A stretch of 64,000 bases of DNA, from the NCBI GenBank assembly GCA_027051165.1, contig JALTZZ010000035.1, positions 4,870 through 68,869 on the forward strand, given 5' to 3'. Shown here one piece after another: positions 4,508-43,422 of this stretch (position 1 is the stretch's first letter; every line of letters starts with the position of its first letter). The position numbers were made by a program, and so were the translations under genes. The notes beneath the pieces are model-generated. The model was not told the origin of the DNA. It searched no databases and worked only from the letters and a program-made list of their open reading frames with translations. Source of the stretch: an archaeon. GTDB lineage: Archaea > Hydrothermarchaeota > Hydrothermarchaeia > JALTZZ01.

Positions 4508-4999
4508 TTATACCCCATCAAAACTAAAGTAGTCGTCCAAACCGAACCAGTAGCCATGGGTCTCCATACTTTCCTTGATAAACTTTATCCATTCCAAATG
4601 CTCTCTTTCAAACTTTATCAGCAAATCAAAAACTTCTTCTGCATCCTTAATTTTTTCTCTGCACTTTATATAAAATGCTATGGAGTTTTCTTCAAGTAGT
4701 TCAGCTTCTTTTAAAATAATTTTATCATCGTCTGTAGCATTTATTTTTTCCTCAAACTTCTCCGGGAAAACTCTTTCTTCTAAAATTTTTGCCTTAGATT
4801 TTACGTCAATGCTACCTTTTTTTATAAGTTCCTCTTTAATATCTTCTAAGAATTTTCTGTGCCTAAGCTCTTCCTTAGCAAGAAACTCAAGAGTCTCTTT
4901 AGCTTTTCTGCTCTTAACTTTCTTAGATGCATTGTAATAGAAATTAAAACCCTTCTTCTCAATTTCAATTCCTCTATTTATGCAGTCTATAATGTTCAT
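4508..4999 (-). CDS. Rubrerythrin-like diiron ferritin-fold protein (no rubredoxin domain).
   Basis: Two E-x-x-H helices (EELRHRKFL, EREHLEWIK) in a ~160-aa helical protein. Confidence 0.65.
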   Translation of the reverse strand: MNIIDCINRGIEIEKKGFNFYYNASKKVKSRKAKETLEFLAKEELRHRKFLEDIKEELIKKGSIDVKSKAKILEERVFPEKFEEKINATDDDKIILKEAELLEENSIAFYIKCREKIKDAEEVFDLLIKFEREHLEWIKFIKESMETHGYWFGLDDYFSFDGV

Positions 5000-5044: not shown

Positions 5045-5100
5045 GAGGATGATGAATTTGCCGAGTGCTGAGCGGTGATGAAAAGGGGAGTCTCTGACGA
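5045..5100 (+). ncRNA. C/D box sRNA (2'-O-methylation guide).
   Basis: C box AUGAUGA 5049-5055, then a 12-nt guide, D' box CUGA 5068-5071, a 3-nt spacer, C' box GUGAUGA 5075-5081, a 12-nt guide and D box CUGA 5094-5097. This is the canonical archaeal geometry with 12-nt spacers. Confidence 0.7.
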
Positions 5101-5270
5101 CCCTATTTTAAAAAAATTTTAACAGCTCTGCTTAGCCTTTGTTAAACATTTTCATCTCTTAGGTTTTAATAAATTCACTTAATAAATTCACTTAGACGAA
5201 ACATTAAGTTCACTTATCTAAGAGGATAAAGAGCCAAAGAAAAAATCTTCATAAAACATGTCGCTTTGAA

Positions 5271-5425
5271 CAATTCCTTCATATTTTTTCAAAATTTCAC
5301 GATTTCTGCTTTGTGTCTTCTTCCATTCCATTGAAACTTTGAGCTTTTTCCATAAGATTAAATCTCCTTGCCCATGTAAGCCCCATATCTTCTATAACTC
5401 TGTAGTATTCCTTTTCTAACGGTTA
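5271..5425. repeat. Degenerate, internally deleted copy of the vapB-5'/elp3-3' junction found intact at 9581-9860.
   Basis: 5271-5312 matches 9581-9622 at ~85%. 5313-5345 matches 9667-9715, including 17 identical nt gtcttcttccattccat. 5361-5398 matches 9775-9812 with one mismatch (aaatctcctt[g/a]cccatgtaagccccatatcttctata). Confidence 0.6.
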
Positions 5426-5459
5426 GTATATATTTTTCTTTGCTTTACCTAAGATATTA

Positions 5460-6779
5460 TTAGCTTAAAAGCCATTTCCAAAGAGGAATAAATTCTATCT
5501 TTTTATTATCAATTTTTTCAGTGCCCTCATAATCCCATGTGATAATCATCAACTTTTTCGTTTTAAGTTCTTTTGAAGCCTTTATAAGAGAGCTAACTTC
5601 CCTATCCTTTACTTCTTCTCTCGTGCTTGCATAGGTTACCTGAACAAGCTCCTTTACTTTTGTGCCCTCCTTCAAAACAAAGTCAACCTCTTTTCCCTCA
5701 GCTTTTCCATATTCCTTCCAGTAAAAGACCTGAAACTTATTAAAAATCTCGCTTCTTCTCAAAAGCTCTAAAAACACTGTATTTTCCATGAGTCTGCTAA
5801 GAGAGGTCTCAACCTTAGAAACTCTTATCAAACCGTTGTCAACAACATAAATTTTCTTTGGATATTGCTTTTTGTCTTTGATTGAGTATGAAAATATCTC
5901 TAAAGGAAAAATAAAGAAAATTTCATTATAATATCTCATATAGTCCAGAAGTTTTGCTTTACCTATCTTAAATCCTAATGATTTTAGATAGCTATAGGCT
6001 TTAGAAATACTAAGATACTTTGCATGATTTGAGAGGCAATATCTTGTGAATTCCTCAAAAGCTGATATATTTCTTATTCTAAATCTTTCAACAAGGTCTC
6101 TGTAGAATATTGCATTGTAGTATGATTCCAAAATTTTTTCTTTTATTTTCTCATCCTCAAGAACAACTTCAGGAAAACCTCCAAATTCTATGTATTCTTT
6201 TAGATATCTTAAAATTTTGCCTCTTTCTTCTTCCAAATATTTTAATAATTCTTTTTTAAAGGTAATACCTTTAATTTTAAGGAATTCTCTAAAACTCAGG
6301 GGAAAAACAACAACATCAATGTTTCTTCCCCTAAGAGATGTGGATATCTCTCTGGAGAGGAGCTTTGAGGAAGATCCAGATAGATATAGTCTGTATTTTC
6401 CCTCATCATGGATTCTTCTAACCCATTTATCCCAATCTTTGACATTTTGTATTTCGTCTAAGAAGAAATAAACTGGTTTATCTCCCTCTGGTTTAAAAAT
6501 CTCGTAATATATTTTGATCATTGTTTCAAGGTCTCTTGCATCCAAATTTCTAAGTCTTTCATCCTCAAAGTTTACGTAGAGGATATTGTCCTTTTTCAGC
6601 CTTTTTGCAAGCTTTTTAATTAGTATAAACATGAGATAGGTTTTTCCAGCTCTTCTTGGTCCGACTATGCTTATTATTTTCCTTGTATCTAAAGGGGCTT
6701 CTATTTCCCTATTAAACGTCTCGGGAATTTCCTGAACCTTCCACTTTATAAGCACAGCTCTAAAGTCATCATCCCTCAT
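5460..6779 (-). CDS. AAA+ ATPase of the AAA_14/DUF4143 family (archaeal ATP-binding protein).
   Basis: Walker A GPRRAGKT, Walker B-like YFFLDEIQ, and a long conserved C-terminal DUF4143-type region. Length is 439 aa. Confidence 0.8.
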   Translation of the reverse strand: MRDDDFRAVLIKWKVQEIPETFNREIEAPLDTRKIISIVGPRRAGKTYLMFILIKKLAKRLKKDNILYVNFEDERLRNLDARDLETMIKIYYEIFKPEGDKPVYFFLDEIQNVKDWDKWVRRIHDEGKYRLYLSGSSSKLLSREISTSLRGRNIDVVVFPLSFREFLKIKGITFKKELLKYLEEERGKILRYLKEYIEFGGFPEVVLEDEKIKEKILESYYNAIFYRDLVERFRIRNISAFEEFTRYCLSNHAKYLSISKAYSYLKSLGFKIGKAKLLDYMRYYNEIFFIFPLEIFSYSIKDKKQYPKKIYVVDNGLIRVSKVETSLSRLMENTVFLELLRRSEIFNKFQVFYWKEYGKAEGKEVDFVLKEGTKVKELVQVTYASTREEVKDREVSSLIKASKELKTKKLMIITWDYEGTEKIDNKKIEFIPLWKWLLS

Positions 6780-6781
6780 TG

Positions 6782-6830
6782 TTCTATAAATAGAACGATT
6801 TCATATATAAATTGTTCTATAAATAGAACA
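6782..6830. promoter_or_regulatory. Two identical 16-bp palindromes GTTCTATAAATAGAAC (6782-6797 and 6815-6830), 33 bp apart, directly upstream of the DUF4143 ATPase start codon. Each contains a TATA-like core.
   Basis: Exact repeat and internal dyad symmetry seen in the sequence. One copy sits at TATA-box distance from the ATG and the other abuts the start codon. Confidence 0.5.
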
Positions 6831-6894
6831 ATTTTTAAAAGAAAATTTTTGACATACATGTAGCATAATTTTTAATCGTGTTTTTTGTAAATAT

Positions 6895-6985
6895 CGGAAT
6901 CAAAGCATCTTACCCATATAAACTCCATACTTTTCGTAGCCGAACTTTCTGTAGTATTCCCTTGTCCCTACGGCACTTGTTACGA
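6895..6985. repeat. Second degenerate copy (~80% identity) of the elp3 3' end (intact at 9775-9860).
   Basis: cttacccatataaactccatacttttcgtagccgaactttctgtagtattcccttgtccctacggcacttgttacga versus cttacccatgtaagccccatatcttctatagccgagctttctgtagtattctcttgttcctacggcacttgttatcag. Confidence 0.6.
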
Positions 6986-6990
6986 TTTTT

Positions 6991-7374
6991 TTATTTTATA
7001 CATCTTTTAAGATATTTTTCAACTTCTTTAACAAATATTTCTGCCATTTTCAGACATTCTTCGGCATCCTCTTTATCAATCATGAATCCTATACCGTAAT
7101 CTCCTTTTTGTCTCAAATTATATATTTTTCTAAAATATTTTCCAAGATTAGTATTAAAAATGCCAGATTTTATAAATAATATTCCAAATAAGCTCATTAC
7201 TCCTTTATGAGAATGTGTTTTAAGATTTTTTGTAAGTAAGGCTGCCTGAGCCATAAAAAACATAGCATAGTAACATCTTGAAACACAGGAATCGTAGTCT
7301 CCATCATTAAAAACAATCTCTGCTGTTCTTAGAAATCTTTTGGATTTGCTTATTAAATACTCTATTTCTTTCAT
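6991..7374 (-). CDS. HEPN-domain protein (toxin partner of the adjacent nucleotidyltransferase).
   Basis: ~127-aa helical protein with R-x4-HxK-like (RQKGDY) region, overlapping the upstream MNT gene by 4 nt. Confidence 0.7.
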   Translation of the reverse strand: MKEIEYLISKSKRFLRTAEIVFNDGDYDSCVSRCYYAMFFMAQAALLTKNLKTHSHKGVMSLFGILFIKSGIFNTNLGKYFRKIYNLRQKGDYGIGFMIDKEDAEECLKMAEIFVKEVEKYLKRCIK

Positions 7375-7691
7375 ACCGATATACCTTCGTCTTTTATACT
7401 TATAAAGAATGGTAATCTGTAGTTTTTAAAGATGCTCTCTTTCACAGCAACTATAGATACAAGTTCTCCTTCATTTAGAAGAATTTCAAAAAGAAGGTCG
7501 TTTAAGTAATTTTCCACATCTTTTGGATCTAATTTATCATCAATTACAACAAGAACGTCAATATCTGAATCTTCAGTAGCCTTACCTCTCGCATGAGAAC
7601 CGTAAAGTATAACTTTTATAATTTCATCTCCATATCTCTTTTTTAGATGTTCTTTTATCCGGTTTAATATTCGCCTAACCTTTTCGTTCAT
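7371..7691 (-). CDS. Minimal nucleotidyltransferase (MNT), partner of the HEPN protein.
   Basis: Pol-beta-type NTase motif LYGSHARGKATEDSDIDVLVV. Length is 106 aa. Confidence 0.8.
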   Translation of the reverse strand: MNEKVRRILNRIKEHLKKRYGDEIIKVILYGSHARGKATEDSDIDVLVVIDDKLDPKDVENYLNDLLFEILLNEGELVSIVAVKESIFKNYRLPFFISIKDEGISV

Positions 7692-7760
7692 TATTTTATT
7701 CTGTGAAAGTTATCTAAGTAAATTTTGAAAAATTTTTGATTGAAATTCTTAGAAAAGCTT

Positions 7761-8981
7761 TTAGTATGCAGCTAATTTTTCGCTCATACAAAGGTTTAAT
7801 GATTCCCCTCTATATATAGGGCAATTGTCTGGAGAGCATTTCTGTAGATATCCGAGCATTGCAAGTATTGGACAATACTTATCACTTTCAGAAACAATAT
7901 CACTTATGCAGAGTTTTAAGATGTTTTTATTATTATGTAAAGGACAAATATAGCACAGATTCTTATCACAGAAAATTCTTGCAAAATCAAAGGTTACATC
8001 AAACTGCTCTGGATAAAATTTGTGTTGTTTAAAAATTTTGTTGTAATCCTTATAAATCTCTCTAATACCTTTTGGAGGATATTTGCTGTATTTTTTATCC
8101 AATTTTTCAATGATAGGCTTCATAACTCTTTCGTAGAATTTTTCATTCCAAACATCTCCTGGAACTTCGAGCTGGTTGAGATACTTATTCGCATTTCTCC
8201 ATCTGCTTAAAACTTTAGAGCTGTGGTGCTTATAATTTTCAAGAGAGCTGAGAATATAACTTTCGTAAATAAAACCTTTTAAATAATCACGCAAAGCTGA
8301 CCATAAACGCTTGTGCCAGAGGTTATTCTTTTTTCTTGAAAAATATCTCTCAAATTTTTCTTCATTATTTAAAACATCAATTATTTCATCTACATCGCTA
8401 TACTCGTTATCGTATGTTAATAAATAAAGTCCAGTAGCTACTTTTCTTACCCAGTTTTCTTCATTTCCATAACTTGTTACGGTGAGCATGAACTCAATTA
8501 AATCCTTATTAAAACTTTTCTCTAATATTTTAAGAGTTCTTTCTACTTTTTCAACTAATCTATGATTTTTTGCTTTCATGAATCTATGTTTAAATTTATC
8601 TTTATTATCAACATTCTTTTCAATGCTAAAGTGTCCTTCCTCATCATTGTAGTATTTTTTAATAACCTCATCGGCAGAAAGCCCTTCTTGAAACTCTTTA
8701 ACAATACGAGTCATTATCGGAAAACACTTTTCCCATACACGTTCGACGGGCATTTGATAATCAAAAATATACATTAGCCAATGGGAAAGCACTAAATGTT
8801 TTGACTCAAAATCATCAATTTCTTCGTTTTTATACTTTTCCCACATTTTGTTTGTATATTTAAGCAACTCTTCTATCCCTCGTTCTTTATGTTCACCATT
8901 CCATCTTGCATTATCAACCCATTTAAAGAATTTCCATAATCTTAATAAATTTTGATTAGTCATAAGTGTTATTTTTGTCAT
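7761..8981 (-). CDS. Uncharacterised 406-aa protein with a Cys-rich C-terminal domain (two CxnCxxC-type clusters). No family recognised.
   Basis: Long ORF with coding-like composition. The C-terminus is CDKNLCYICPLHNNKNILKLC...CPILAMLGYLQKCSPDNCPIYRGESLNLC. It lies between the HEPN-MNT and VapBC modules. Confidence 0.6.
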   Translation of the reverse strand: MTKITLMTNQNLLRLWKFFKWVDNARWNGEHKERGIEELLKYTNKMWEKYKNEEIDDFESKHLVLSHWLMYIFDYQMPVERVWEKCFPIMTRIVKEFQEGLSADEVIKKYYNDEEGHFSIEKNVDNKDKFKHRFMKAKNHRLVEKVERTLKILEKSFNKDLIEFMLTVTSYGNEENWVRKVATGLYLLTYDNEYSDVDEIIDVLNNEEKFERYFSRKKNNLWHKRLWSALRDYLKGFIYESYILSSLENYKHHSSKVLSRWRNANKYLNQLEVPGDVWNEKFYERVMKPIIEKLDKKYSKYPPKGIREIYKDYNKIFKQHKFYPEQFDVTFDFARIFCDKNLCYICPLHNNKNILKLCISDIVSESDKYCPILAMLGYLQKCSPDNCPIYRGESLNLCMSEKLAAY

Positions 8982-9093
8982 TTAACTACTTTAAAAATAA
9001 TTCTAATAAACTAAAAATTAAAAAAATTAAATCTCCATACCAAACTTTTTATTTTCAACTACTTCTTCAACTTTTCTATATAAGCTATAAAAC

Positions 9094-9543
9094 TTACTTC
9101 AGCTTTTCAGCATCATCAACAAACACGATACCTTCTTTTTCACAAACATCCCTAAAATCCTCATCGAAAGAAACAAGATAATTTATCCCATGGAATTTGC
9201 ATGTAGCGAGGATTAATGCATCATTTGGTAAAAGATTATATTTTCTCATATATTCATAAGCCTTCTCAACAATATCATCATTTACACTTAAAATTTTGAA
9301 CTGATCCAAAAATTCCTTTGGCTCATTCTCCTTAATAAATTTGCTAATTTCACCCTTCTTTTTCACATTAATGGCGGAGATTCCAGAAGTTAGAGATATA
9401 TAGTGGAAGATAAATTCGCTAAAAACGATATCATTTATATAACCCTCAACATCAAGCTTGCTTAACTCGTAAAAGAGCTTGGAAGCTTTTTTATTACCTT
9501 TTATAAACTCTATTAGAGCTGAAGAGTCAAAGAATACCTTCAT
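9094..9543 (-). CDS. vapC: PIN-domain ribonuclease VapC toxin.
   Basis: PIN acidic residues are present (MKVFFDSSALIE, NDALILATC, LVSFDEDF). Start is placed at MKVFFD. The ATGA overlap with the vapB stop is as called. Confidence 0.8.
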   Translation of the reverse strand: MKVFFDSSALIEFIKGNKKASKLFYELSKLDVEGYINDIVFSEFIFHYISLTSGISAINVKKKGEISKFIKENEPKEFLDQFKILSVNDDIVEKAYEYMRKYNLLPNDALILATCKFHGINYLVSFDEDFRDVCEKEGIVFVDDAEKLK

Positions 9544-9731
9544 TGAAGATACCACTCTTCCTCTTTTATCTCACCTTTACCAATTCCTTCATATTTTCTC
9601 AAAATTTCTGGATTTAGTCTCCTTTTAGAAAGCTCTTCCCTTAAAAATTTCTCTATTTTCCGCTTCATGTCTTCTTCCATTCCATCAGGAACATTAAGCC
9701 TTATTATAATTTCACCCATATTTTTAATCAA
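9540..9731 (-). CDS. vapB: Small VapB-like antitoxin.
   Basis: A ~60-aa charged protein immediately upstream of and overlapping vapC. Start may be M at 9719. Confidence 0.5.
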   Translation of the reverse strand: MIKNMGEIIIRLNVPDGMEEDMKRKIEKFLREELSKRRLNPEILRKYEGIGKGEIKEEEWYLQ

Positions 9732-9773
9732 GAATTTTAACCATGATAAACGTTTTACCTTTTCCTAATAAAA

Positions 9774-11363
9774 TCAAATCTCCTTACCCATGTAAGCCCC
9801 ATATCTTCTATAGCCGAGCTTTCTGTAGTATTCTCTTGTTCCTACGGCACTTGTTATCAGAACCCTTTCCTTTCCGTGCTTTTCAGCTATTTCTTCAGCC
9901 TTTTCAACCAAAAGCCTTCCATAGCCCTTGTGCTGCTTCGAGAGAAAGCCCTCTTTTTCTTTTAGCGGTAGAGCCGTGCCTAATACCTTAAGCTCCCTTA
10001 TTATTGCTGTCTTTTCATCCATTTCCCAGCGGTGTGCATGCTTTGAAGGAAACCTTAATCTCAGATATCCAACTACCGCAAGCCTCTCTTTATCCTCTAT
10101 AGATAAGAAAAATTCTTTACCCTTAGAAGCTTTGTAGCTCTCGACAAATATTTTTAAATCATCCTCAGTAATTTCAACGTTTTCTCTATACATTACGTGC
10201 CCAACTTCTCTGCACCTTATGCACATGCACCTTGCATTATCTTTTTTCAAAGCTTTAATCACAAGCTCAGCAAGGTTGCTCTTTTTAACTCCAGCTACTA
10301 TCAGCTCGCTTGGTATGTCTCTCTGTATCCTCATAACCCTTACCCAAGGTGGAAGAATCTTTTTTATCTCTTTTATAAGTTCAACAGCCTCTTCATCGCT
10401 ATATGGCTTGTATTCTCCATGCTTCCACATCTCATAAAGCTCTGTTCCCTTAACAACGAGAGTTGGATAAATTTTGAGCATATCTGGCTTGAAGTTCTCG
10501 TTTTTAAAAATCTTTTTAAACATCTCCAGGTCCTCGGAGAAGTTTGAGAACAAGCCGGGCATCATGTGGTAGCACACCTTAAGTCCAGCATCTTTTAATA
10601 TGCGTGTAGCCTCTACGACATCGTCAACAGTATGCCCTCTATTTACGAGGTCGTATATCTCTTGTTTTATCGTCTGAACACCGAGCTCAACTCTCGTAGT
10701 TCCGTAGCTCAGCATTAGATCAACATGCTCTTCCTTAGAAAAATCTGGTCTCGTCTCTATCGTTAAGCCTACGCACCTAACCCTTGCTACCTCGTTTTCT
10801 CTGTGAGCTTCTTCCAAGCTTATAGGCTCATTTTTATAGCTTGGAAAATCGTTCATAGCCTTAAAGCATCTTGCAACAAAGTCTTTTTGATAATCTACTG
10901 GAGATGCTAAGAAAGTTCCCCCCATTATTATAAGCTCAACCTTTTCTATGCTGTGTCCTATCGAGCTTAGTTGCCTTAACCTATCGTGCACCTGCAGATA
11001 CGGATCGTAGTTCGCTCTCTTTGCTCTTAGCGTTGCTGGCTCGTAGCCAGTGTAGCTCTGCGGTGCATTCTCACCACGTGGACAGTAAATGCATCTGCCG
11101 GGGCATGGATAGGGTTTGGACATAACAGCTACAACAGCCACACCTGAGATCGTTCTCACGGGCTTCTTTGTTAATAAAGATTTAATTTCTTTATCTTCTA
11201 TAAATTTCATTATTTCTGAGTTCTTCGGTATATTAATTCTGTATTTTCTTGATATTCTTGCTTTTATTCTTTTAATTTCTTCTCTCGCTTCTATAAAGTT
11301 TTTCTTTTTAATTTTTTTTATTTCCTCTGCAATTTCTCTTAAAGCTTTTTCTTTTACAAGCAT
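9774..11363 (-). CDS. elp3: Elp3-like radical-SAM / GNAT tRNA-modifying enzyme.
   Basis: Radical-SAM CPGRCIYCP cluster plus a C-terminal acetyltransferase domain. Length is 529 aa. Confidence 0.9.
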   Translation of the reverse strand: MLVKEKALREIAEEIKKIKKKNFIEAREEIKRIKARISRKYRINIPKNSEIMKFIEDKEIKSLLTKKPVRTISGVAVVAVMSKPYPCPGRCIYCPRGENAPQSYTGYEPATLRAKRANYDPYLQVHDRLRQLSSIGHSIEKVELIIMGGTFLASPVDYQKDFVARCFKAMNDFPSYKNEPISLEEAHRENEVARVRCVGLTIETRPDFSKEEHVDLMLSYGTTRVELGVQTIKQEIYDLVNRGHTVDDVVEATRILKDAGLKVCYHMMPGLFSNFSEDLEMFKKIFKNENFKPDMLKIYPTLVVKGTELYEMWKHGEYKPYSDEEAVELIKEIKKILPPWVRVMRIQRDIPSELIVAGVKKSNLAELVIKALKKDNARCMCIRCREVGHVMYRENVEITEDDLKIFVESYKASKGKEFFLSIEDKERLAVVGYLRLRFPSKHAHRWEMDEKTAIIRELKVLGTALPLKEKEGFLSKQHKGYGRLLVEKAEEIAEKHGKERVLITSAVGTREYYRKLGYRRYGAYMGKEI

Positions 11364-32452: not shown

Positions 32453-33592
32453 ATGGATTTTGAAATATATAAAATCATGTTTGACGTAGCTATAGTAGGT
32501 GGGAGCTCGACAGGCTTGATAGCTGCGAGAGAGCTCTCAAAGCATGGTTTAAGAGTGTGCGTCCTTGAAGAGCATGAAATAGGTGAAGTAGTATGCTCTG
32601 GGCTGATAAGTGTAAACGGTGTTAAGGAGCTTGGTATAAAGCCGGAGAACGTTGAAAATATAATAAGAGGTGTGAGATTTGTATCTCCGAGCAATGTTGA
32701 AATATATGCACATTCAAATATAGACAGGGCTTTTGTAGTTAATAGGGGGCTCTTCGACAGGCAGATTGCTGAGGAAGCTCTTTCAAGCGGAGCTAAGATA
32801 TTTGAGAAATTTAGAGCTAAAAAAATAGCTTTTAAAAATGATTATGTTGATATTAACGGTGAGATAAGGGCTAAGATTGTTCTCGGCTGCGATGGTTTAA
32901 AAAGCATTGTTGCAAGAGCGTGCTCTTTAAATCCTCCGAGAAGAGTTGTTGCCTCTGCAAAAGCAGTATTTAAAAACGCAGACTACCTTCAAGAAGATGT
33001 TGCAGAAGTCTATTTTAGGGATTATGCCAAGGGATTTTTTGCATGGATTCTGCCAAGGGGAAAATGTGTTGAAATAGGTGTGGGTGTTAGAAAAGCTAAT
33101 TTAAGACTTGCATTAGAGAGATTTCTTAAGGAGAGGGGCTTAGAATTAAAGAGCTTTCAAACAGGGGCTTTTCCAGTGGAAGTCGTCTCGGATACGTGTG
33201 GATATAGGGCTATGATCGTTGGGAACTCTGCCGGACAAGTTAAGGCAAGCACCGGAGGAGGTGTTATTACCGGCGGCATCTGTGCAAAAATTGCGAGTAA
33301 AGCATGCCTTAAGTCCTTGGAAGAGGATAAATTCGATAAAGACTTTTATAAAAAGAATTACGAAGATATTTGGAAAAAAAGCCTTCTAAGGGAGTTCTAT
33401 GCACATATTATAATAAGGGAGCTCTATGAAAGGCTCGATAAGCACAGCCTCGATGCCCTTTTTAAAATAGCGAGAGAAGAGGGGATAGATAAGATAATGA
33501 TAAAATATAGAGACACAGACAAACCTTCAAAATTTTTAGATGAGATAATGAAAAAAGAAAAAATTATTTCATTTCTTTCGCAGTTTATTTAG
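32453..33592 (+). CDS. Geranylgeranyl reductase family FAD-dependent oxidoreductase (digeranylgeranylglycerophospholipid reductase-like).
   Basis: FDVAIVGGSSTGLIAAREL dinucleotide fold, with GCDG and GNSAG motifs. Start is possibly ATG 32477. Confidence 0.85.
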   Translation: MDFEIYKIMFDVAIVGGSSTGLIAARELSKHGLRVCVLEEHEIGEVVCSGLISVNGVKELGIKPENVENIIRGVRFVSPSNVEIYAHSNIDRAFVVNRGLFDRQIAEEALSSGAKIFEKFRAKKIAFKNDYVDINGEIRAKIVLGCDGLKSIVARACSLNPPRRVVASAKAVFKNADYLQEDVAEVYFRDYAKGFFAWILPRGKCVEIGVGVRKANLRLALERFLKERGLELKSFQTGAFPVEVVSDTCGYRAMIVGNSAGQVKASTGGGVITGGICAKIASKACLKSLEEDKFDKDFYKKNYEDIWKKSLLREFYAHIIIRELYERLDKHSLDALFKIAREEGIDKIMIKYRDTDKPSKFLDEIMKKEKIISFLSQFI

Positions 33593-36500
33593 TTCCTGTT
33601 TATCCTTATCCATACAACCTTTCTCTTTCCGGGCTCTGCTTTTATAGTAACTGTCTTTTCTAAGAGTTTTTCTTCAAATAAGTCAGGATCGAGCCACCTT
33701 GCCTTTACTGTTATTTCTTTATCTCTAATTTTAAATACACCATAGTTCTTTGTTCCTTTTGATTTAACAAGCATTGTTTTTGAGTATTTATTGACGAATA
33801 CGTCAACGTAGAGATCATCGTCGTCCAAATTTTCAACTATCACCTCTACTTCTGTTGGCAGTATATCCGCAAATATCTCGCTTATCTGCCTCTTCGCAGT
33901 GTCGCTTATATCAACGGCTATTATTTTTATCGGCTTTCTGCTCTTATCCACTCTATTATCTTTGAGAAACCCTAAAACACTTTTCGGAACACTGTCTTTA
34001 ACGTATATTATAGGTGCATTCATGTATTCGGATATCAAAACTGCTCTGGTGCTTATGTTTCTTCCATCAGTTACAACAATAACCTTTAGATCAAGCTTCT
34101 TCTTTTTGTAGGCTTTTGCAAGCTCTACCGCAGTTTCGTATCTCGTTTCGCCCCAAATTCTCTCAACCTCATACCTCTCTCTTAAATAGTTCTCTACTTC
34201 TTTTGATATAGCTTTTTCTCCGCCAACGATAATTACCTTCATTGGAGATATCTCATCTATTGCAAGCAGTGCACTTGAAACAAGCTCATCTGGCTTCGTA
34301 AGTATTATAGGATATCTGCTTATTTTTGCAAAGGCTATTGCAGCTACGGCATCTGCGGGTATATCCCCCCTTGCAAGAACTACAGTTCCAGAGTATCTGA
34401 ACTTCTCCAAAATCATCTTATTTGCAACCTCGTAGACATCTCCATCAATTTCTATAATATCCTTGGCTTCTATTCCTTCCGCAAATACAGGCTTATCCAT
34501 AAGAGCTAATATTGGATAGACACTTATTGGAGCTTTATAGAAAGTCTTATCCTCAAGTTTGTATTCCTTAATAAACAATTTCATGAACTTCGCATTTACG
34601 GTATTAATGCCACTCTCCACGGTAAATTCCTCTATTTTTCTCGGAGCTGGAGCTGCACCTCCTCCGCCTCCTCCACCAACTGCTGGCTGATAGCCCGAAA
34701 TAGCTACGGTTATACTCTTAGACACCTTTTCAGCATTTATACACGAAGCTTCTGCAGTAAAGGTTACGCTATTCTCGTTTGGAAGGTTAACTGTAAAGTT
34801 TATTGTTTTTGTCGTTTTTGGCTGAATATCTGTTGATTGAGCACCAAAGTTTATAAGCTTTATATAACATTCTTTTGCAATTTCACTTTCAATGTTTTCT
34901 ACATTTACGCTCACAACAACGCTTTCTCCTACCTCGAGCTTCCCATAAACGTCAATTTTTGTTATGTTAATTTTCGTATGGTTTAATACATGCAATCCCA
35001 CACTTTCGTTTGTTTCGTTTGCGTTGCTTGCATTCACCTTGAACAATAACGTATAGTTTCCTCTGCTTGCGAAAATTAGGCTAAATGTTTCATTCCAGCT
35101 TTCAAGGTAATCAAGCTTATCCAAGTGTCTACTCTCGTTTTTAACACCTGATACAAGAGATAGGGTCAAATTCTTTGCACTTGAATTTCCACCATTTTTA
35201 ACGATAATACCCATATTCAAGCTCTTATTTACAACCCAGTATTTTGGTGCATCTACATATATTATAAGCCATGGCTCATTTGAGTATACGATTGTTATGT
35301 TTGTGCTTGCATGCACAGTGTAGCTTCCCCTTATTATCTCTCCCCCAATCGCTCTCTCTATTAAATAGCTTAGGGTTGCGTTTATAGTATAGTTTCCAGT
35401 CCAGTTTGCTTTAAGTGTGAATTCCTCAACATAGCTCCCTATGCTCAGCTCGCCCAAGCTCTTTGATGTATTCTCTCCGCTGATGTTGCTTGGTAATATA
35501 ATTTCAATTGTTGCATTTTTTATTCCGATATTACTTACATTTATATAAGCCTTTAATCTAAAATCAGCATTAACCGGATACTTTTCTGGTGCTTCTATGC
35601 TTAGATTTACATTTGGAACAACAACCACATTTCCACCACTTGGATCTATTGTTATGTTGTTGTATAAAAGCCTAACGTTAAATCCTGAGATAACCCCTGT
35701 TTCGTTTGTAAATGCCGTCCAGTTTACGGTTATCGTCTCGTTGGGGGATAGAATCTTTGGAGTGGTAAACTTAACCTGATCGTATATGTAGACAAATTTA
35801 TCCTTCGGCGGTATAAGGGTTACGTTCATTATACTTACATTCCTGTTTTCTTTGTTTGTGATGTTCACTTTAACTGTGAAGTTTACGAATGGATAGACAA
35901 CGCTCGGCTCTACCGCTATTGTTCCTTTAACAACCCCTGGGACTATTTCAATCGTCTTGCTGAACTCCTTGGATATTCCTCCATAGCTAACCTTAGCCAC
36001 TACTGTATAATTGCCCAGAGGTATCGGATTCTGGTTGTGATCTCCTACTATCCATGTAACCTCATAGTCCATTTCTCCGTTCAGCGGTGTGTTCTCAAAC
36101 CTCAAGTTCGGATTTTCCTCCGGATTAAATATCTTATAGAGAGTTCCTCCTCTTGTAATAGAAATTGTTATGTTTCCGTAGTTTATGGTGGTGTAGCCTT
36201 CGTTTTTAAGTTTAACTTTTATATCAGCAGCCTCACCATTTATAAGGCTCTGATTTATTATTATATCTACGATGCTCAGATTTACGATCTCTATACCTTT
36301 TGTTATGTAGTCAACGACATTGTTGCCTTCAACAAGCTTTGCTCTAAGCGTATATGCTCCAGTTGGCAGATAGTAGCCGGCTATTCTTCCGTCCCAAGAA
36401 TACTCCTTATAAACGCTTCCAAGGATGTTGAAGTTCTCCTCAGCTATAATTCCTATTGTGCTGTTTGTGGAGTTTAGAATCTCTAAAACAAGCTTCACAT

Positions 36501-39500
36501 TCTTCTCAGTTTCCGAGAACATGTTTATGTATATCTTCATTGCTACACCGTATGCAAGCTCGCTTAAGCTCGTTCTCATGCTCGATATCCCTATAGGCTT
36601 CTCAGAAACGTTTATAAACATTTCTTTTTCTGCAGAGGATATTCCGTATTTGAGCTCTACTTTTATTCTATATACTCCGGGGGAATCAAATGTTATCAAA
36701 AATCCTTCTCTTTTAGTTGAATAGCTCGGCATCTTAACAGCTTTTGTTTCTACATTCGTGCACGTTATGTTGCAGACGTATAGAGAGAGGTTCGCATCAA
36801 GCTCTGGTGCAATGTTTATCAGGGTAACGTTTACCTCTGTGCTCATGTTTACAAAAGTCTTTTCCGGCATGTCTATTGACAGTATTCCAGCTCTCTCCAA
36901 GATAATATTTTTTCCTCCCTCAAGCACCGTTGTATATGATTCGTTTGCATCCGCATATTTAAGCTCATATTCTATAACGTTTGCACCATGGCTTCCGTTT
37001 ATCAGACTTTCCAGTTTCCAGAGCTTTGATATGTTATAAACCTCATCCTCATGCAGATATCTATTCAGTATTACTGTTCCCTCGGAGCCCGGCTGTATGT
37101 CTGTGAAGAATTTAACCCTGTATGCAAGTTCCTTGAGCTTAACGGTGCTGTTAGCACTTATTGAGAAGTTTATGTATATGCTTTCGCCGGGATAAGCAAC
37201 TCCTTTTGTGTTTACTTCAACATCTATCAGGTGCTCAAATCTAAGCTTTGCATACTTCCAAACATCTTTACCATCTATGCTCGCAGATACCTCAAGTATT
37301 ACATCCCCCTCTTCTATAGCAACGCTCTTCAGCTCAACGTATCCCTCGTATAGCCCGCTTAAGTAATTGTTCTCGCTAAGCGTTCCTTCAGCAATTATCC
37401 TTCCTTTGCCGTCCCATATCTTATAGCTTACGCTCTTTCCAGATAATAAATTGTTTGTAGTCATGTTTCTAAGATAAACAGCAATAAGCATTCCATTTCT
37501 TAAAATATCTTCACTTTCAGGTTCTTTAAATTCTATAAAAGCTGGAGATACGAGTATATCATCAAAGTAAACAGCATCGTTGAAGTATACCTTAACTCTA
37601 ACTCCGTCTGAGCTGTATAGATCGCTCCACTTCGGATTTGTTATGTCCTTTATTATATCTATGAAGCCGTTTCTGTAGCTTTTGTTATATACCGTAATAT
37701 TTTCTGAGTTTTCTGCAAGTAATCCTTCTTCTATAAAGACAAACACACCTCTATTTTTATCCAGCACCCTTCTTACCTTATAAAGCTCAGCTTTTATCTC
37801 ACCAGTAATATCAATGTCTTGCATATTAACCGCTGTGTAGTTTATTCTGAATCTGTTTTTTTGCTCAATAACGCTGTTGTATAGATCTTCCTTAAAGACT
37901 TTTACTCCGTTTACATATATATCAAATCCTGCAAGCTTTATTTCAGGATATACCTTCAAGACTTTCTCAAATGTGAATGTTACAAATTTGAGGTTGTCTG
38001 GATTTATATATGACACATTAACAACAAACGTGTAGTTCTTTGCATCTGGATCTATTGTAAGGTTTTCTCCAGAGAATATTGTAGTTGTAGGCTTGCCGTA
38101 TCTCCTCAGCGATATTTCACTCCATGAAATGTTTTTAACGTTCTCAACACCGTTTTTAAACACCTCTACAGATATGTTTACCGTTATGTTGAAGTATCCT
38201 AAGTTTATCACGTAGGGAACTATGGTTACATTTCCGCTCTCGTTTGAAACTTCCTTAACTGCTAAATTATCCTTTGTTACAAGCAGATCAACCGTGATCG
38301 GATTTACATAAAACATCTTCATAAATTCTGGTAGAATGTGGTCTACTGTAGCTCCTCTTGAATTTTCTATTTCAAAATATGGATTTCTGTATTTTATCCT
38401 TATAAAGACGCTATGATTCTGATCTATTATCGAATTCGCAGTATCCCATACAAACGTGAAGAACTCAGTTGTATTCGGCTTTATAAGCTTTTCATCCGTT
38501 GAAAACTCAAGCGTTCTTCCGCTTCTATCAACAACCTGATATATTATTGATGCATTTAAGCCGAGGAAGTATGCTAAGCATGTAACGTTACTCGTCTCTA
38601 CCCTGTTCTTGACCTCTAAGCTGAAGCTGTTCTTATCTCCGTAGTTAACAAATTTCTTTTCCATGCTAAATGATAGAAGCTCCACCGGGTGGAGTATCGT
38701 TATCTCCTTAGGATAGCTTATCCCTATTAAGCTGTTCTTGTAGTATACGTATGCATAGAGCGAGAAGTTACCTTCTACATAGTATGGTATATTTGGTATT
38801 ATATCGGTCTTATACCATAAACCGTCTTTGTATACGGCATCTACTTCATAGTATATTATGTTATTCTTTATTACCTTAAACGTTACCTTGTAATCCTTTG
38901 GATCTGAAACGTTGCGGAAATAAGTATAGGTTACCTTTTCTCCGGGTATATAGTAGCTTAAACATGAGAACATTCTTTCAACGATCTCAGCTGTTGTTTT
39001 TAATCCCTTAACAACCGTAAGCGTGCCGCCAAATCTATACGATGCTCTTCCATCGTAGCTAAGGTTTGCAGCTATGCTATAAGTTCCGCTCGCCAAAGCT
39101 AAAGAAAATTCATGTTCCGTAACAGAAAATGCTGGAAGGATTACGTTTCTTTCTCCATGAGAAGATGAGTTAACGTATAGAGTGAGCGTTGCGTTCATTC
39201 TTTCTCCAATGTTCTTTACTAAAACCTTTATCGTTGCATTGCTTCCCTCCTCAACTCCCTCTGGGATTTCTATTCCTATTATGCCGGCTTTTTCTAAGGT
39301 AAACGTTGTAGTGTTTTCAATTGTGTAATTTATTCCGTCTCTTTCAAATATTACGTAGGCAACTATTGTATTTATTCCGTAGGTTCCGTATCTCGCATTC
39401 TCAGCGTTCCAAGGTGAAATTTCTTTCAAAACGCTCTTATTAATCTGGAGAAATTCATCAACCGTAATGCTGTAGCTGCTGTTCACCTGCTCATAGCCGC

Positions 39501-40401
39501 GCCAGAATATTCCAGACCTTCCGTAGCCTACTATGTGCAGATCAAAGTTAGCGACGTTGGTAACGTTTATTATCGTAGCAACATCATCACCTGGGTAGCA
39601 AGACGTGCAGTTCGTGGAAATCAGGAGTTCTATCGGGCTTCTCACGTTTATATTTATTTCATCGCTTCCGAAGAAGACGCCTCTGCTTGTGTATGCCTTT
39701 ATTGTTAGCGAGCCTACTGAGTATTCGTTGTCAAGTGCTACGACAACGCTTGCGTTTCCGCTTGCATCTGTTGTGGCGTATAGAGTTTCTACGCCCGTAT
39801 CGAAGGTTACGTTGAAGCCAGAAGCATTGGTTCCGTTTCCATATTCTACGTGAGCTGTAAGCGTTATATTATCGCTTAGGAACGGCAAGGAGTTGCTCAC
39901 ATATAGCTCAAGCACGAGGTTGGCTACGGTTAAGTTTCTATCAGAAAATCTGCTTGCGTTCTCGCTTGCATAGCTTAAGTTTGCTAAGATAGCGTAGACT
40001 CCAGCACCTAATTCGCTCGTGTTGAACTCCACTTCTACGTTCTTCTTGGAGAATCCGCCTATCGTTGTTTGGGAGCTGTATATTCTGTGCCACGTTCCGT
40101 TGAATGCGTATAGCGTTAGGTTTGCATTCTGAGCAGCGCCGAGGTTTGTAATGCTTATGCTGGCTGTAACGTTTTCTCCGAGTTTAACAGCATGCTCGCT
40201 CAGCTTGACGCTTTCTATTCCGATCTGCTCCAAAATAAAGCTTGTTTCGTTTTCTATGCTGTATTCAGTATCTCCCGTCCTGTTGACGCTTCTGAAGAGT
40301 ATCTTAACCTTAGCCACGTTTGTTCCGTTTGTTCCCATTTCAGCTAAGCTTGTGTTCCATGAGCCTATGCTTATAGATAGGCTTTCACCAGGCTTTAGCA
40401 A
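33589..40401 (-). CDS. Giant (2270 codon) secreted surface protein. It has multiple CARDB/Ig-like beta-sandwich repeats, dense N-x-S/T sequons, a Gly7-Ala-Pro linker and three C-terminal CWB2-like cell-wall-binding modules. It is in frame with, and probably the continuation of, the 40420-43422 ORF.
   Basis: Internal repeats (e.g. three blocks ...E.G.I.I..PE....N.T..V...N......A.L.LY). C-terminus VIIVGGEKAISKEVENYL...ERIWGETRYETAVELAK. The ORF-track start is a TTG with no obvious ATG or promoter. Confidence 0.85.
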   Translation of the reverse strand: MLKPGESLSISIGSWNTSLAEMGTNGTNVAKVKILFRSVNRTGDTEYSIENETSFILEQIGIESVKLSEHAVKLGENVTASISITNLGAAQNANLTLYAFNGTWHRIYSSQTTIGGFSKKNVEVEFNTSELGAGVYAILANLSYASENASRFSDRNLTVANLVLELYVSNSLPFLSDNITLTAHVEYGNGTNASGFNVTFDTGVETLYATTDASGNASVVVALDNEYSVGSLTIKAYTSRGVFFGSDEININVRSPIELLISTNCTSCYPGDDVATIINVTNVANFDLHIVGYGRSGIFWRGYEQVNSSYSITVDEFLQINKSVLKEISPWNAENARYGTYGINTIVAYVIFERDGINYTIENTTTFTLEKAGIIGIEIPEGVEEGSNATIKVLVKNIGERMNATLTLYVNSSSHGERNVILPAFSVTEHEFSLALASGTYSIAANLSYDGRASYRFGGTLTVVKGLKTTAEIVERMFSCLSYYIPGEKVTYTYFRNVSDPKDYKVTFKVIKNNIIYYEVDAVYKDGLWYKTDIIPNIPYYVEGNFSLYAYVYYKNSLIGISYPKEITILHPVELLSFSMEKKFVNYGDKNSFSLEVKNRVETSNVTCLAYFLGLNASIIYQVVDRSGRTLEFSTDEKLIKPNTTEFFTFVWDTANSIIDQNHSVFIRIKYRNPYFEIENSRGATVDHILPEFMKMFYVNPITVDLLVTKDNLAVKEVSNESGNVTIVPYVINLGYFNITVNISVEVFKNGVENVKNISWSEISLRRYGKPTTTIFSGENLTIDPDAKNYTFVVNVSYINPDNLKFVTFTFEKVLKVYPEIKLAGFDIYVNGVKVFKEDLYNSVIEQKNRFRINYTAVNMQDIDITGEIKAELYKVRRVLDKNRGVFVFIEEGLLAENSENITVYNKSYRNGFIDIIKDITNPKWSDLYSSDGVRVKVYFNDAVYFDDILVSPAFIEFKEPESEDILRNGMLIAVYLRNMTTNNLLSGKSVSYKIWDGKGRIIAEGTLSENNYLSGLYEGYVELKSVAIEEGDVILEVSASIDGKDVWKYAKLRFEHLIDVEVNTKGVAYPGESIYINFSISANSTVKLKELAYRVKFFTDIQPGSEGTVILNRYLHEDEVYNISKLWKLESLINGSHGANVIEYELKYADANESYTTVLEGGKNIILERAGILSIDMPEKTFVNMSTEVNVTLINIAPELDANLSLYVCNITCTNVETKAVKMPSYSTKREGFLITFDSPGVYRIKVELKYGISSAEKEMFINVSEKPIGISSMRTSLSELAYGVAMKIYINMFSETEKNVKLVLEILNSTNSTIGIIAEENFNILGSVYKEYSWDGRIAGYYLPTGAYTLRAKLVEGNNVVDYITKGIEIVNLSIVDIIINQSLINGEAADIKVKLKNEGYTTINYGNITISITRGGTLYKIFNPEENPNLRFENTPLNGEMDYEVTWIVGDHNQNPIPLGNYTVVAKVSYGGISKEFSKTIEIVPGVVKGTIAVEPSVVYPFVNFTVKVNITNKENRNVSIMNVTLIPPKDKFVYIYDQVKFTTPKILSPNETITVNWTAFTNETGVISGFNVRLLYNNITIDPSGGNVVVVPNVNLSIEAPEKYPVNADFRLKAYINVSNIGIKNATIEIILPSNISGENTSKSLGELSIGSYVEEFTLKANWTGNYTINATLSYLIERAIGGEIIRGSYTVHASTNITIVYSNEPWLIIYVDAPKYWVVNKSLNMGIIVKNGGNSSAKNLTLSLVSGVKNESRHLDKLDYLESWNETFSLIFASRGNYTLLFKVNASNANETNESVGLHVLNHTKINITKIDVYGKLEVGESVVVSVNVENIESEIAKECYIKLINFGAQSTDIQPKTTKTINFTVNLPNENSVTFTAEASCINAEKVSKSITVAISGYQPAVGGGGGGGAAPAPRKIEEFTVESGINTVNAKFMKLFIKEYKLEDKTFYKAPISVYPILALMDKPVFAEGIEAKDIIEIDGDVYEVANKMILEKFRYSGTVVLARGDIPADAVAAIAFAKISRYPIILTKPDELVSSALLAIDEISPMKVIIVGGEKAISKEVENYLRERYEVERIWGETRYETAVELAKAYKKKKLDLKVIVVTDGRNISTRAVLISEYMNAPIIYVKDSVPKSVLGFLKDNRVDKSRKPIKIIAVDISDTAKRQISEIFADILPTEVEVIVENLDDDDLYVDVFVNKYSKTMLVKSKGTKNYGVFKIRDKEITVKARWLDPDLFEEKLLEKTVTIKAEPGKRKVVWIRINRN

Positions 40402-40419
40402 GATGTCTCTAGTCTTGAG

Positions 40420-43400: not shown

Positions 43401-43422
43401 TTATACTTCTCCCCTTTTCCAT
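40420..43422 (-). CDS. 1000-codon paralogous surface-protein ORF with an N-terminal signal/TM segment. It terminates at the TAG complement of 40420-40422, immediately followed in frame by the 2270-codon ORF.
   Basis: Signal peptide MEKGRSINITILFIFFAIMLLIANVHA. Shares ~400 aa of blocks with the downstream ORF (IPNIPYY.EG.F, HPVELL.F.M.KK.NYG, KPNTTEFF.F.W, IDQNH...IRI.Y.N.Y.EI.NS.G, DAKNYT..VNV.YINPD). Confidence 0.85.
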   Translation of the reverse strand: MEKGRSINITILFIFFAIMLLIANVHAMYINEPYISARQFACNPAFGFYVPGENVRLEVNASPPSGGYTVEFIIKKFDLIHGTWLTYEYPAEYDENKGVWFYSGEIPNIPYYIEGDFILEAVIKNSTSESLNTTVIRIEHPVELLKFNMSKKTLNYGETNEFLVVVKNKAYTNDTTCLGYHLGLNVTIEYEIVDRMGRIRNYTTELRPIKPNTTEFFKFNWSTYNAQIDQNHTIAIRINYENVYLEIGNSKGSSVYGADKAFQDNNTLIYNFTKTFYINPISVDIKAFYKNIEVESVPNKTGENVTIRPYVNNIGFYNVTMNITVNIYKYNNSGIFYIGNVTWINSTAERRYGIPKLTIFEGKNFSLHGDAKNYTLEVNVTYINPDPEANQSLVSFTLNKTLLVYSYVKPADMRIEINRFDYSVEDFSENDIYKRKSTFSVNYSIENLGSSKEGNLTVEIRSCKLLKSQNGTFLVGNCVYVVNYTKPVTVNQGNFTDKVILYKEEINPKVIYDSDVFIVKLNFSFENYTLLDERSYKNLFIDFESYPAELNLSKNYISLYVRNYTKIVNDNDYTPESGYNLEYLVWDSEGRVIAEGDLKDLGGLYYSEISFNKEIPAEEGFVYLKIKEKNGKFWKHLRLFFDHPISADVSTDKLSYYLGETANISVLISNPTDESLWLEKLTLKVLKQGKELFLPLNISLNKFIANGTSERIEVPWEVLNLINGTQGYNDVVVEIKYQNLTSGKSAVTESTERIWIWEAGIVNISSPKYVKIDEDFNVTVSLQSLTNVTGNLTLSFCGSSWTKNVEVDYYKEVSFNVSCSEAGNKVIKAWFEFGAFRNSTKTTSVHVNNIIVNLLTLNETGVDNEFFLSERLTALAEVRYANGTPLNNTSVKFYLDSDVYENFTNSSGVAKITVILNETGSLRVRAEVSSGIYYGANETTITVRSPVEVLVRTDRSRYEPGDTVNINATIRNIAPFAVKIDRSEISGIYWQGYLAQRYDE

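Follow-up and report, generated by a model that had tools for sequence, protein, structure and literature searches.

The elp3 locus and the copies of its gene end

The 64,000-nucleotide (nt) stretch analysed here, referred to as the window, covers positions 4,870 to 68,869 of contig JALTZZ010000035.1 and comes from an uncultivated hydrothermal-vent archaeon found in vent metagenomes of the Brothers-volcano type. It contains a full-length elp3 gene, whose product is a radical-SAM/GNAT tRNA-modification enzyme, and next to it an islet of about 4.5-5.4 kb in which accessory genes are interspersed with further copies of the elp3 3' end. A thermosome gene lies close by. From elp3 outward, the order is the working gene end (C1), vapBC, a doubtful copy (C4), a gene for a 406-amino-acid (aa) protein, an MNT-HEPN pair, the second copy (C2), a DUF4143 ATPase gene, the third copy (C3) and a vapB pseudogene; beyond the pseudogene lie a candidate C/D box small RNA (sRNA), a rubrerythrin gene and nfeD. 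The target gene and the copies are as follows, with positions counted in the window.

9774-11363, minus strand: elp3, full length, 529 aa, with the Pfam domains ELP3_N, Radical_SAM, Radical_SAM_C and GNAT; the target gene
9772-9856, minus strand: C1, the working elp3 3' end, ...ITSAVGTREYYRKLGYRRYGAYMGKEI with its stop, plus 2 nt; the reference copy of the repeat
6898-6982, minus strand: C2, 85 nt, full length, 84% identical to C1 without gaps, non-coding at this place
5356-5425, minus strand: C3, decayed, KEI type, with a 37-nt core that is 97% identical and about 15 nt deleted
5258-5351, minus strand: degraded elp3-vapB spacer with a vapB pseudogene, placed after C3; found as direct repeats and by a tblastn match to VapB 40-62 (E 8e-5)
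9023-9044, minus strand: C4, tentative, a 22-nt (22-23) stub of the distal end of the block, GGTATGGAGATTTAATTTT, between vapC and the gene for the 406-aa protein

The repeated segment, here called the block, is 85 nt long. In C1 it starts at TAAC (9856) and ends two bases beyond the TGA stop (9772), and it comprises the third base of a codon, the last 27 sense codons, the stop codon and 2 nt beyond it. C1, C2 and C3 all lie in the orientation of elp3. The start of C2 coincides with that of C3 (TAAC, equivalent to 9856), and the similarity between C2 and C1 stops at the second base after the stop codon (stop+2). The decay of the copies grows with their distance from elp3.

A 46-nt core of C2 gave a BLAST E value of 5e-14 in a search of the window. 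The copy can be read in frame as VTSAVGTREYYRKFGYEKYGVYMGKML up to its stop, with neither an internal stop nor a frameshift, and its ending is ...GVYMGKML (KML type), whereas the resident elp3 ends in ...GAYMGKEI (KEI type). When C2 was compared with the elp3 ends of related loci, it was 87% identical to the KML-type ends of L054, L057 and L058, and its differences from that allele comprised five synonymous and four non-synonymous codon changes. The intact frame, the coding-type changes and the KML ending indicate that C2 was once a functional gene end of different origin and is not a copy of C1 that decayed in place. C2 is moreover an isolated 85-nt island, neither flank of which is homologous to elp3 or vapB.

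C3 has a different appearance. Its core (BLAST E 2e-13 in the 64-kb window) is followed by deletions of about 7, 6, 1 and 1 nt, and the homology continues beyond the block through a remnant of the elp3-vapB spacer into a vapB pseudogene, which carries an internal stop and a frameshift and is placed after C3 just as vapB is placed after C1. The oldest junction thus reproduces the present elp3-vapB junction. We looked for a vapC remnant to the left of the pseudogene and none was detectable. As for C4, it has 3 mismatches in 22 nt and the orientation of the other copies. A pattern test in shuffled sequences expects 0 such matches, while alignment-score controls give p values of only about 0.01-0.03; as a fourth copy, C4 is only weakly supported and is kept as tentative.

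Within the window, the block is confined to this locus. A 24-nt pattern of the putative attachment (att) site matched twice in 64 kb (C1 and C2) against 0.00 expected, a 221-nt probe (9700-9920, the block with its flanks) gave no further significant match in the window, and no direct repeat of the whole 64 kb is longer or better than the 85-nt one, the other repeat families being paralogous genes. An earlier note on this DNA, made from the sequence alone, had described three same-orientation copies of the elp3 end. Its coordinates and identities (about 80% for one copy; 38 nt with one mismatch for the other) are right within a few bases, and within the window the block is not the generic dispersed repeat that was named there as a refutation. 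Its description of the further copies as decayed holds for C3 and not for C2, whose frame is intact, and C3 passes beyond the stop codon, since its homology runs on to 5258.

Chance similarity or an assembly artefact seems to us hardly worth entertaining as an explanation of the copies. The window does come from a metagenome assembly, its sequence is AT-rich, and the contigs of relatives break near the locus. Against this stand the E values (5e-14 and 2e-13), an expectation of 0 matches in shuffled sequence, and the presence of C3 in a different metagenome-assembled genome (MAG), at locus L057. In addition, the locus arrangement is 100% identical over 15 kb in L059, a separately assembled ENA scaffold that covers the whole islet.

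An integrase-independent origin deserves more attention, although we regard it as unlikely. DNA of a related strain, or sister copies in a polyploid archaeon, could have been inserted or duplicated by homologous or unequal recombination, with the elp3 end and vapBC as the stretch of homology. The repeat unit of C3, which exceeds 85 nt and passes through the spacer into vapB, is what such an event could leave. Fixed ends are unexpected under it, and yet C2 and C3 share their start and C2 ends at stop+2. Nor does it account well for C2 as an island without flanking elp3 or vapB homology, and the different allele and coding-type divergence of C2 speak against a duplication in situ.

Two further repeat observations were made in the window. 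The 9-mer AATATCTTA occurs at 7007-7015 and 5450-5458, that is 24-25 nt before C2 and C3 in the orientation of elp3, and the instance at C2 lies within the HEPN coding sequence; an arm-type recombinase site is one possible explanation, chance in an AT-rich sequence another. Far from the islet, at 33589-43422 on the minus strand, two adjoining giant open reading frames (ORFs) of 2270 and 1000 aa hold several common repeat segments of 36-70 nt at a spacing of about 4.3 kb and are partly paralogous.

Comparison of the gene end and vapBC with related genomes

The genes adjoining the working gene end are the following.

9540-9719, minus strand: vapB-like antitoxin gene, 59 aa, the first gene past elp3; also a called gene in L059
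9094-9543, minus strand: vapC, PIN-domain toxin gene, 149 aa (Pfam PIN, E 2e-22)

Exact-protein look-ups recovered four related loci. The Elp3 of L054, L057 and L058 is 97% identical to that of the window, and that of L055, which belongs to another species, is 89% identical; L056, a short Logan contig with the same Elp3 sequence as L055, was grouped with it. In every close relative recovered (L054, L055, L057 and L058), the same spacer and then vapBC lie past elp3. The gene end occurs among these loci in two alleles, the KEI type in the window and L055 and the KML type in L054, L057 and L058.

When we compared the window with L055 segment by segment, the identities were as follows.

elp3 body: 80.2% of nucleotides (1208/1507), 54.4% at third codon positions
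85-nt block: 92.9% of nucleotides, 81.5% at third codon positions
spacer plus vapB: 92.7% of nucleotides; vapB third codon positions, 82.8%
vapC: 91.5% of nucleotides, 83.9% at third codon positions

The third-position difference between the elp3 body and the block plus vapBC is significant (Fisher p = 4e-10). The relationships are also reversed between gene body and gene end: in its body, the elp3 of the window is closer to L054 (94.2%) than to L055 (80.2%), while in the block it is closer to L055 (92.9%) than to L054 (89.4%). These discordant identities indicate that the gene end and vapBC were exchanged between lineages independently of elp3, as is predicted if an incoming element replaces the gene end. 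Gene conversion between strains would give the same mosaic pattern, and to that extent the comparison also suits homologous recombination.

The cargo further out differs between related MAG contigs. At L057, elp3-vapBC is followed by the last 48 codons of the DUF4143 gene, a C3 that carries the same 7-nt deletion as the C3 of the window, and a disrupted GmrSD (DUF262) gene. The homology of L057 to the window breaks off no more than about 5 nt from the C3 end, so the breakpoint falls at the end of a block. L057 resembles a simple deletion derivative, which again is compatible with homologous recombination alone.

Variable cargo with a breakpoint at a block end is also what would be expected if the blocks were recombination sites bounding small cassettes (vapBC; the glycosylase-like gene with MNT-HEPN; DUF4143) in an integron-like array served by a recombinase encoded elsewhere. 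Up to four blocks do part up to four small cargo units, none of which has a recombinase of its own, and the att-vapBC unit is more identical between species than the host gene. We nevertheless consider such an array improbable: C3 is decayed and C4 a doubtful stub, so that most sites are not maintained, the comparison of cargo is based on four related genomes, and ordinary remnants of tandem integration explain the same facts with fewer assumptions.

Contig ends within the islet were observed repeatedly. The Logan contigs L053 and L060, from the same strain and the same run, end at 9101 and 6125, the first at the end of vapC and the second midway through the DUF4143 gene, and contigs from three relatives likewise stop at or shortly past vapC. 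These ends suggest that structural variants co-exist in the populations, and population variants of this kind in the same strain would also fit a cassette array.

Other archaeal elp3 genes served as controls. Duplication of the gene end is absent downstream of the gene in the 46 further loci that had sequence there, and the two short off-target matches found among these loci both lie upstream. L072, whose Elp3 is 63% identical, is the closest locus recovered beyond the close relatives; there, housekeeping genes begin 44 nt past elp3, vapBC and the repeat are absent, and the synteny differs.

We also examined the opposite side of the islet. NfeD is about 55-57% identical to its matches in Candidatus Pyrohabitans and Hydrothermarchaeales. 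The nfeD gene does not stand beside rubrerythrin in L069 or L071, and in the species of L055 the nfeD side leads to oapCB and not to elp3. In L071 (GCA_015520175), nfeD is followed at 2517-2854 by a different antitoxin-like ORF and a PIN gene in place of rubrerythrin. The hisD-nfeD DNA of this MAG is 79% identical to the window, as against 94% for its elp3 contig, a mismatch that is due either to a chimeric bin or to a variable region that extends as far as nfeD.

Cargo genes and flanking features

The remaining features of the islet and its far flank are listed here.

7761-8981, minus strand: 406-aa cargo protein with a putative HhH-GPD (EndoIII/AGOG/DUF2419-like) glycosylase-like fold and a C-terminal Cys cluster
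7371-7691, minus strand: MNT nucleotidyltransferase of the MNT-HEPN pair, 106 aa (Pfam NTP_transf_2; PADLOC PDC-S09, E 9e-31)
6991-7374, minus strand: HEPN protein, 127 aa (Pfam HEPN, E 6e-24; PADLOC PDC-M05B)
5460-6779, minus strand: AAA_14/DUF4143 ATPase between C2 and C3, 439 aa (AAA_14, E 3e-40; DUF4143, E 2e-15; PADLOC PDC-S01, E 7e-109)
6778-6843, no strand assigned: two 33-nt tandem units found by repeat search, each with the palindrome TTGTTCTATAAATAGAACAA, directly upstream of the start codon of the DUF4143 ATPase
5045-5100, plus strand: candidate C/D box sRNA, a full-length match to RF00095 (39.7 bits against a gathering score of 45; searching 551 nt gave E 7.7e-7)
4508-4999, minus strand: rubrerythrin-like gene (Pfam Rubrerythrin), GC content 0.32

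The first gene pair past elp3, a PIN toxin gene preceded by a small antitoxin gene that overlaps its start by 4 nt, has the arrangement of a type II toxin-antitoxin system of the VapBC kind, while the 59-aa VapB itself gave no family match. VapC homologues at 80% and 68% identity were found in unrelated contexts, including between hsdM and hsdS, and such relatives in unrelated places point to a vapBC module that is itself mobile. The cases between hsdM and hsdS, which form a type I restriction-modification operon, are two JGI metagenome contigs, L064 (9825-10459) and L065 (4320-4954), whose vapBC encodes a VapC protein 68% identical to that of the window.

The 406-aa protein gave no match in Pfam, none in a Foldseek search against the PDB and no relatives in viral contigs, and its single-sequence AF2 model had a predicted local distance difference test score (pLDDT) of 35, too low to be of use. 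Members of the HhH-GPD superfamily are defined by the HhH-GPD fold, and those of the EndoIII/MutY branch also have a Cys4 iron-sulphur loop. On the strength of its putative glycosylase-like fold, we rejected this protein as a hidden recombinase. PDC-S09, PDC-M05B and PDC-S01, to which the MNT, HEPN and DUF4143 proteins were assigned, are candidate families of PADLOC. The two 33-nt units in front of the DUF4143 ATPase are, judged from their sequence, likely a duplicated promoter element resembling a TATA box or operator.

Taken together, the cargo (VapBC, MNT-HEPN and DUF4143) is typical of mobile and defence islands. The islet has a GC content of 0.304, the lowest among all 4.5-kb segments of the window (mean 0.376, standard deviation 0.023), which points to foreign cargo and counts against the integrase-independent origin. 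The GC trough reaches across the rubrerythrin gene to about 4400, and the variable low-GC region probably extends to the end of nfeD at about 4408. The rubrerythrin-like gene, whose protein has no homologue of at least 90% identity in the database, may still belong to the variable region. The C/D box sRNA candidate, which shows C, D', C' and D boxes and lies between rubrerythrin and the vapB pseudogene, is probably a neighbour outside the elements. A perfect non-coding tandem repeat, TTAATAAATTCAC in 2.2 copies, was observed between this candidate and the pseudogene (5166-5194).

Proposed serial integration at the elp3 3' end

Based on these observations, we suggest, with a probability of roughly 0.6, that the islet arose by serial Campbell-type integrations, each of which restored the end of elp3, and that it now consists of integrase-less remnants forming a toxin-antitoxin and defence islet. 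In this proposal, the elp3 3' end would serve as a chromosomal attachment site that small integrative elements used repeatedly. An incoming circular element would carry an attachment site of its own (attP) that includes the 85-nt elp3 end (TAAC to stop+2), and Campbell-type recombination within the block would place the element directly after elp3. The copy brought by the element would then complete the gene, and the previous end would be pushed downstream as a non-coding direct repeat that keeps its old downstream neighbour. The youngest insertions would accordingly lie nearest to elp3 and the oldest junction furthest away: the vapBC-bearing unit would be the youngest, the DUF4143 unit the next, and the older elp3-vapB junction the last. 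If C4 is real, the vapBC unit was perhaps separate from the unit with the glycosylase-like and MNT-HEPN genes. The integrases and probably most of each element would have been lost later, or the recombinase may act in trans, and recombination between direct copies may remove or swap cargo, as in L057. That a site-specific recombinase was at work, that the events took this order and that the integrases were lost is inferred.

Several features are consistent with this scheme. First, a fixed extent of attP predicts the common start of C2 and C3 and the end of C2 at stop+2, which random duplication does not. Second, C3 is trailed by a vapB pseudogene, as expected if a displaced end kept its old neighbour. 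Third, serial integration also explains the foreign, coding-type sequence of C2 and the decay of the copies with distance. Finally, two hallmarks of integrative elements are present: direct repeats of the target 3' segment flank inserted DNA, and elp3 is intact (529 aa) with a replacement end of discordant history and with C2 as a displaced in-frame end. Two others were not found, namely an integrase gene in the element and, in the virus, phage, plasmid and metagenome collections searched, a free or elsewhere-integrated carrier of attP. With the repeats and the preserved gene present and the integrase and attP carrier missing, we call the inserted segments remnants and not an intact member of the class.

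A number of results weigh against serial integration. No integrase or recombinase was found in the islet, where all ORFs of at least 60 aa that do not overlap a longer assigned gene are themselves assigned, nor among 20 other ORFs of 222-491 aa in the window, all of which are housekeeping genes, nor in the short contigs of relatives; the absence from the islet and from these 20 ORFs also favours homologous recombination. No virus, plasmid or metagenome contig was found that carries the block outside elp3: two degenerate block patterns gave no match in IMG/VR, blastn with the block gave none in phage and plasmid collections, and one block pattern retrieved from JGI metagenomes only an unrelated thaumarchaeal elp3 with shared GTREYYRK codons. 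No syntenic empty site was found either, as the close relatives all carry elp3-vapBC on contigs that mostly end there, and a search of genome contigs with Elp3 returned only relatives of at most 54% identity. The inter-copy segments of 0.7-2.8 kb are too small for autonomous elements, and among archaeal att sites a length of 85 nt is great, given the 29-69 bp quoted in a thaumarchaeal survey (PMC6563490). The homology of C3 passes beyond the block into vapB, which requires either that an element had vapBC beside its attP or that an identical junction existed before. Partial chimerism of the related MAGs is possible as well, as the figures for GCA_015520175 illustrate.

The earlier note had already proposed integration with regeneration of the gene end. 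The shared boundaries, the C2 allele, the discordant history of block and vapBC, the variable cargo, the GC trough and the 46 loci without duplication speak for the proposal. It stays unproven, as the searches brought up neither an integrase nor a virus or plasmid with the attP, nor an empty site in synteny. The gene content given there (DUF4143 ATPase, HEPN, MNT, the 406-aa protein and VapBC) was confirmed, and the statement that no integrase gene is left agrees with our scan of the islet and the 20 further ORFs. The listing of all these genes as accessory needs qualification, since vapBC adjoins elp3 in every close relative recovered. The idea that the three copies delimit the islet has to be given up: the vapB pseudogene lies past the leftmost copy, and the low-GC variable region probably reaches about 4408. 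The target is indeed a protein gene rather than a tRNA gene, which is not unusual given the systems described below.

Comparison with known systems

The closest analogue of the elp3 islet is, in our view, e14/phage 21 at icd, the textbook case of a protein-gene att site. On one side of the prophage e14 is an icd gene that reaches into it, on the other icdC, a C-terminal pseudogene (PMC13626634, citing Hill et al. 1989). As at elp3, integration occurs in the 3' end of a housekeeping gene, a replacement end is supplied, and the displaced end persists as a direct-repeat pseudogene. In E. coli, icd 3' ends are mosaic among natural isolates, as is the elp3 block here. However, e14 is a single, excisable 15-kb element with its own integrase, whereas the elp3 islet has 3-4 copies, segments of 0.7-2.8 kb and no integrase, and it lies in an archaeal host at another target gene.

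Among archaea, part of the thaumarchaeal survey places 14 of 68 integrated mobile genetic elements within 3'-distal parts of protein genes and documents the tandem re-use of att sites (PMC6563490). These elements share with the elp3 islet an archaeal host, a protein-gene 3' end, direct repeats around accessory cargo and repeated use of one site that leads to arrays. They were recognised by an integrase or casposase and by empty sites in sister genomes, while the elp3 islet comes without a recombinase or an available empty site. Their att sites, as given in the same part, include one of 13 bp in thaumarchaea and 29-69 bp in crenarchaea, compared with 85 nt at elp3, and elp3 is not among the target genes named there.

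Casposons of Families 1 and 2 at the 3' end of aEF-2 are likewise archaeal, target a conserved protein gene at its 3' end and can stack in tandem, according to the same survey (PMC6563490). Casposons differ in having Cas1, terminal inverted repeats and short target-site duplications. A casposon was rejected for the islet, since there is no Cas1 among the annotated ORFs, terminal inverted repeats are lacking, and the 85-nt repeat is far too long. The inverted pairs in the region are weak (70-77% complementary), and none at block boundaries brackets an inter-block segment.

Integron arrays resemble the islet in their small promoter-poor cargo units, repeated sites, single chromosomal location and variable cargo. 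An integron was rejected as well: no IntI was found, and the blocks, as single-stranded DNA, fold without an attC-type hairpin (z -0.02 to -1.25, both strands). There is no attI, and the repeats are decaying copies of a gene end. The lack of hairpin potential and of an integron-type integrase also counts against the integron-like array considered above. A bolder version, in which the blocks are live sites of an integrase-less, gene-end-templated cassette system that draws its recombinase from elsewhere in the genome or from a virus and in which att-vapBC moves between species, is in our judgement a long shot.

Finally, islands linked to tRNA genes and decayed ("grounded") prophages share with the elp3 islet a toxin-antitoxin and defence content of distinct composition at a gene 3' end, direct repeats and the loss of mobility genes. 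They differ in their target, as elp3 is a protein gene and not a tRNA or tmRNA gene, and the elp3 islet is very small by comparison.

Meaning of the elp3 islet

Integration into gene ends is already well known, and our understanding of the process is unchanged. What the present analysis adds is elp3 as a target, a gene not named in part of the thaumarchaeal survey (PMC6563490), together with the sharing of a gene end and vapBC across species and an uncharacterised glycosylase-like cargo protein. The 85-nt sequence can be used as a probe for the missing integrase-bearing element in genomes and viromes of the lineage. If the blocks were live cassette sites, the locus would amount to an integron-like platform in archaea, on which defence genes are tied to a housekeeping gene. 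As serial integration, the elp3 islet is a worked example, from a poorly known vent lineage that is possibly near Hydrothermarchaeota, of a protein-gene 3' end at which insertions took place time and again. Its insertion history is legible in the stacked copies, with one functional-looking foreign allele, one decayed copy and a current end that is more alike between species than elp3 as such, and it illustrates how toxin-antitoxin and defence genes build up at such a site once the mobility genes are gone.

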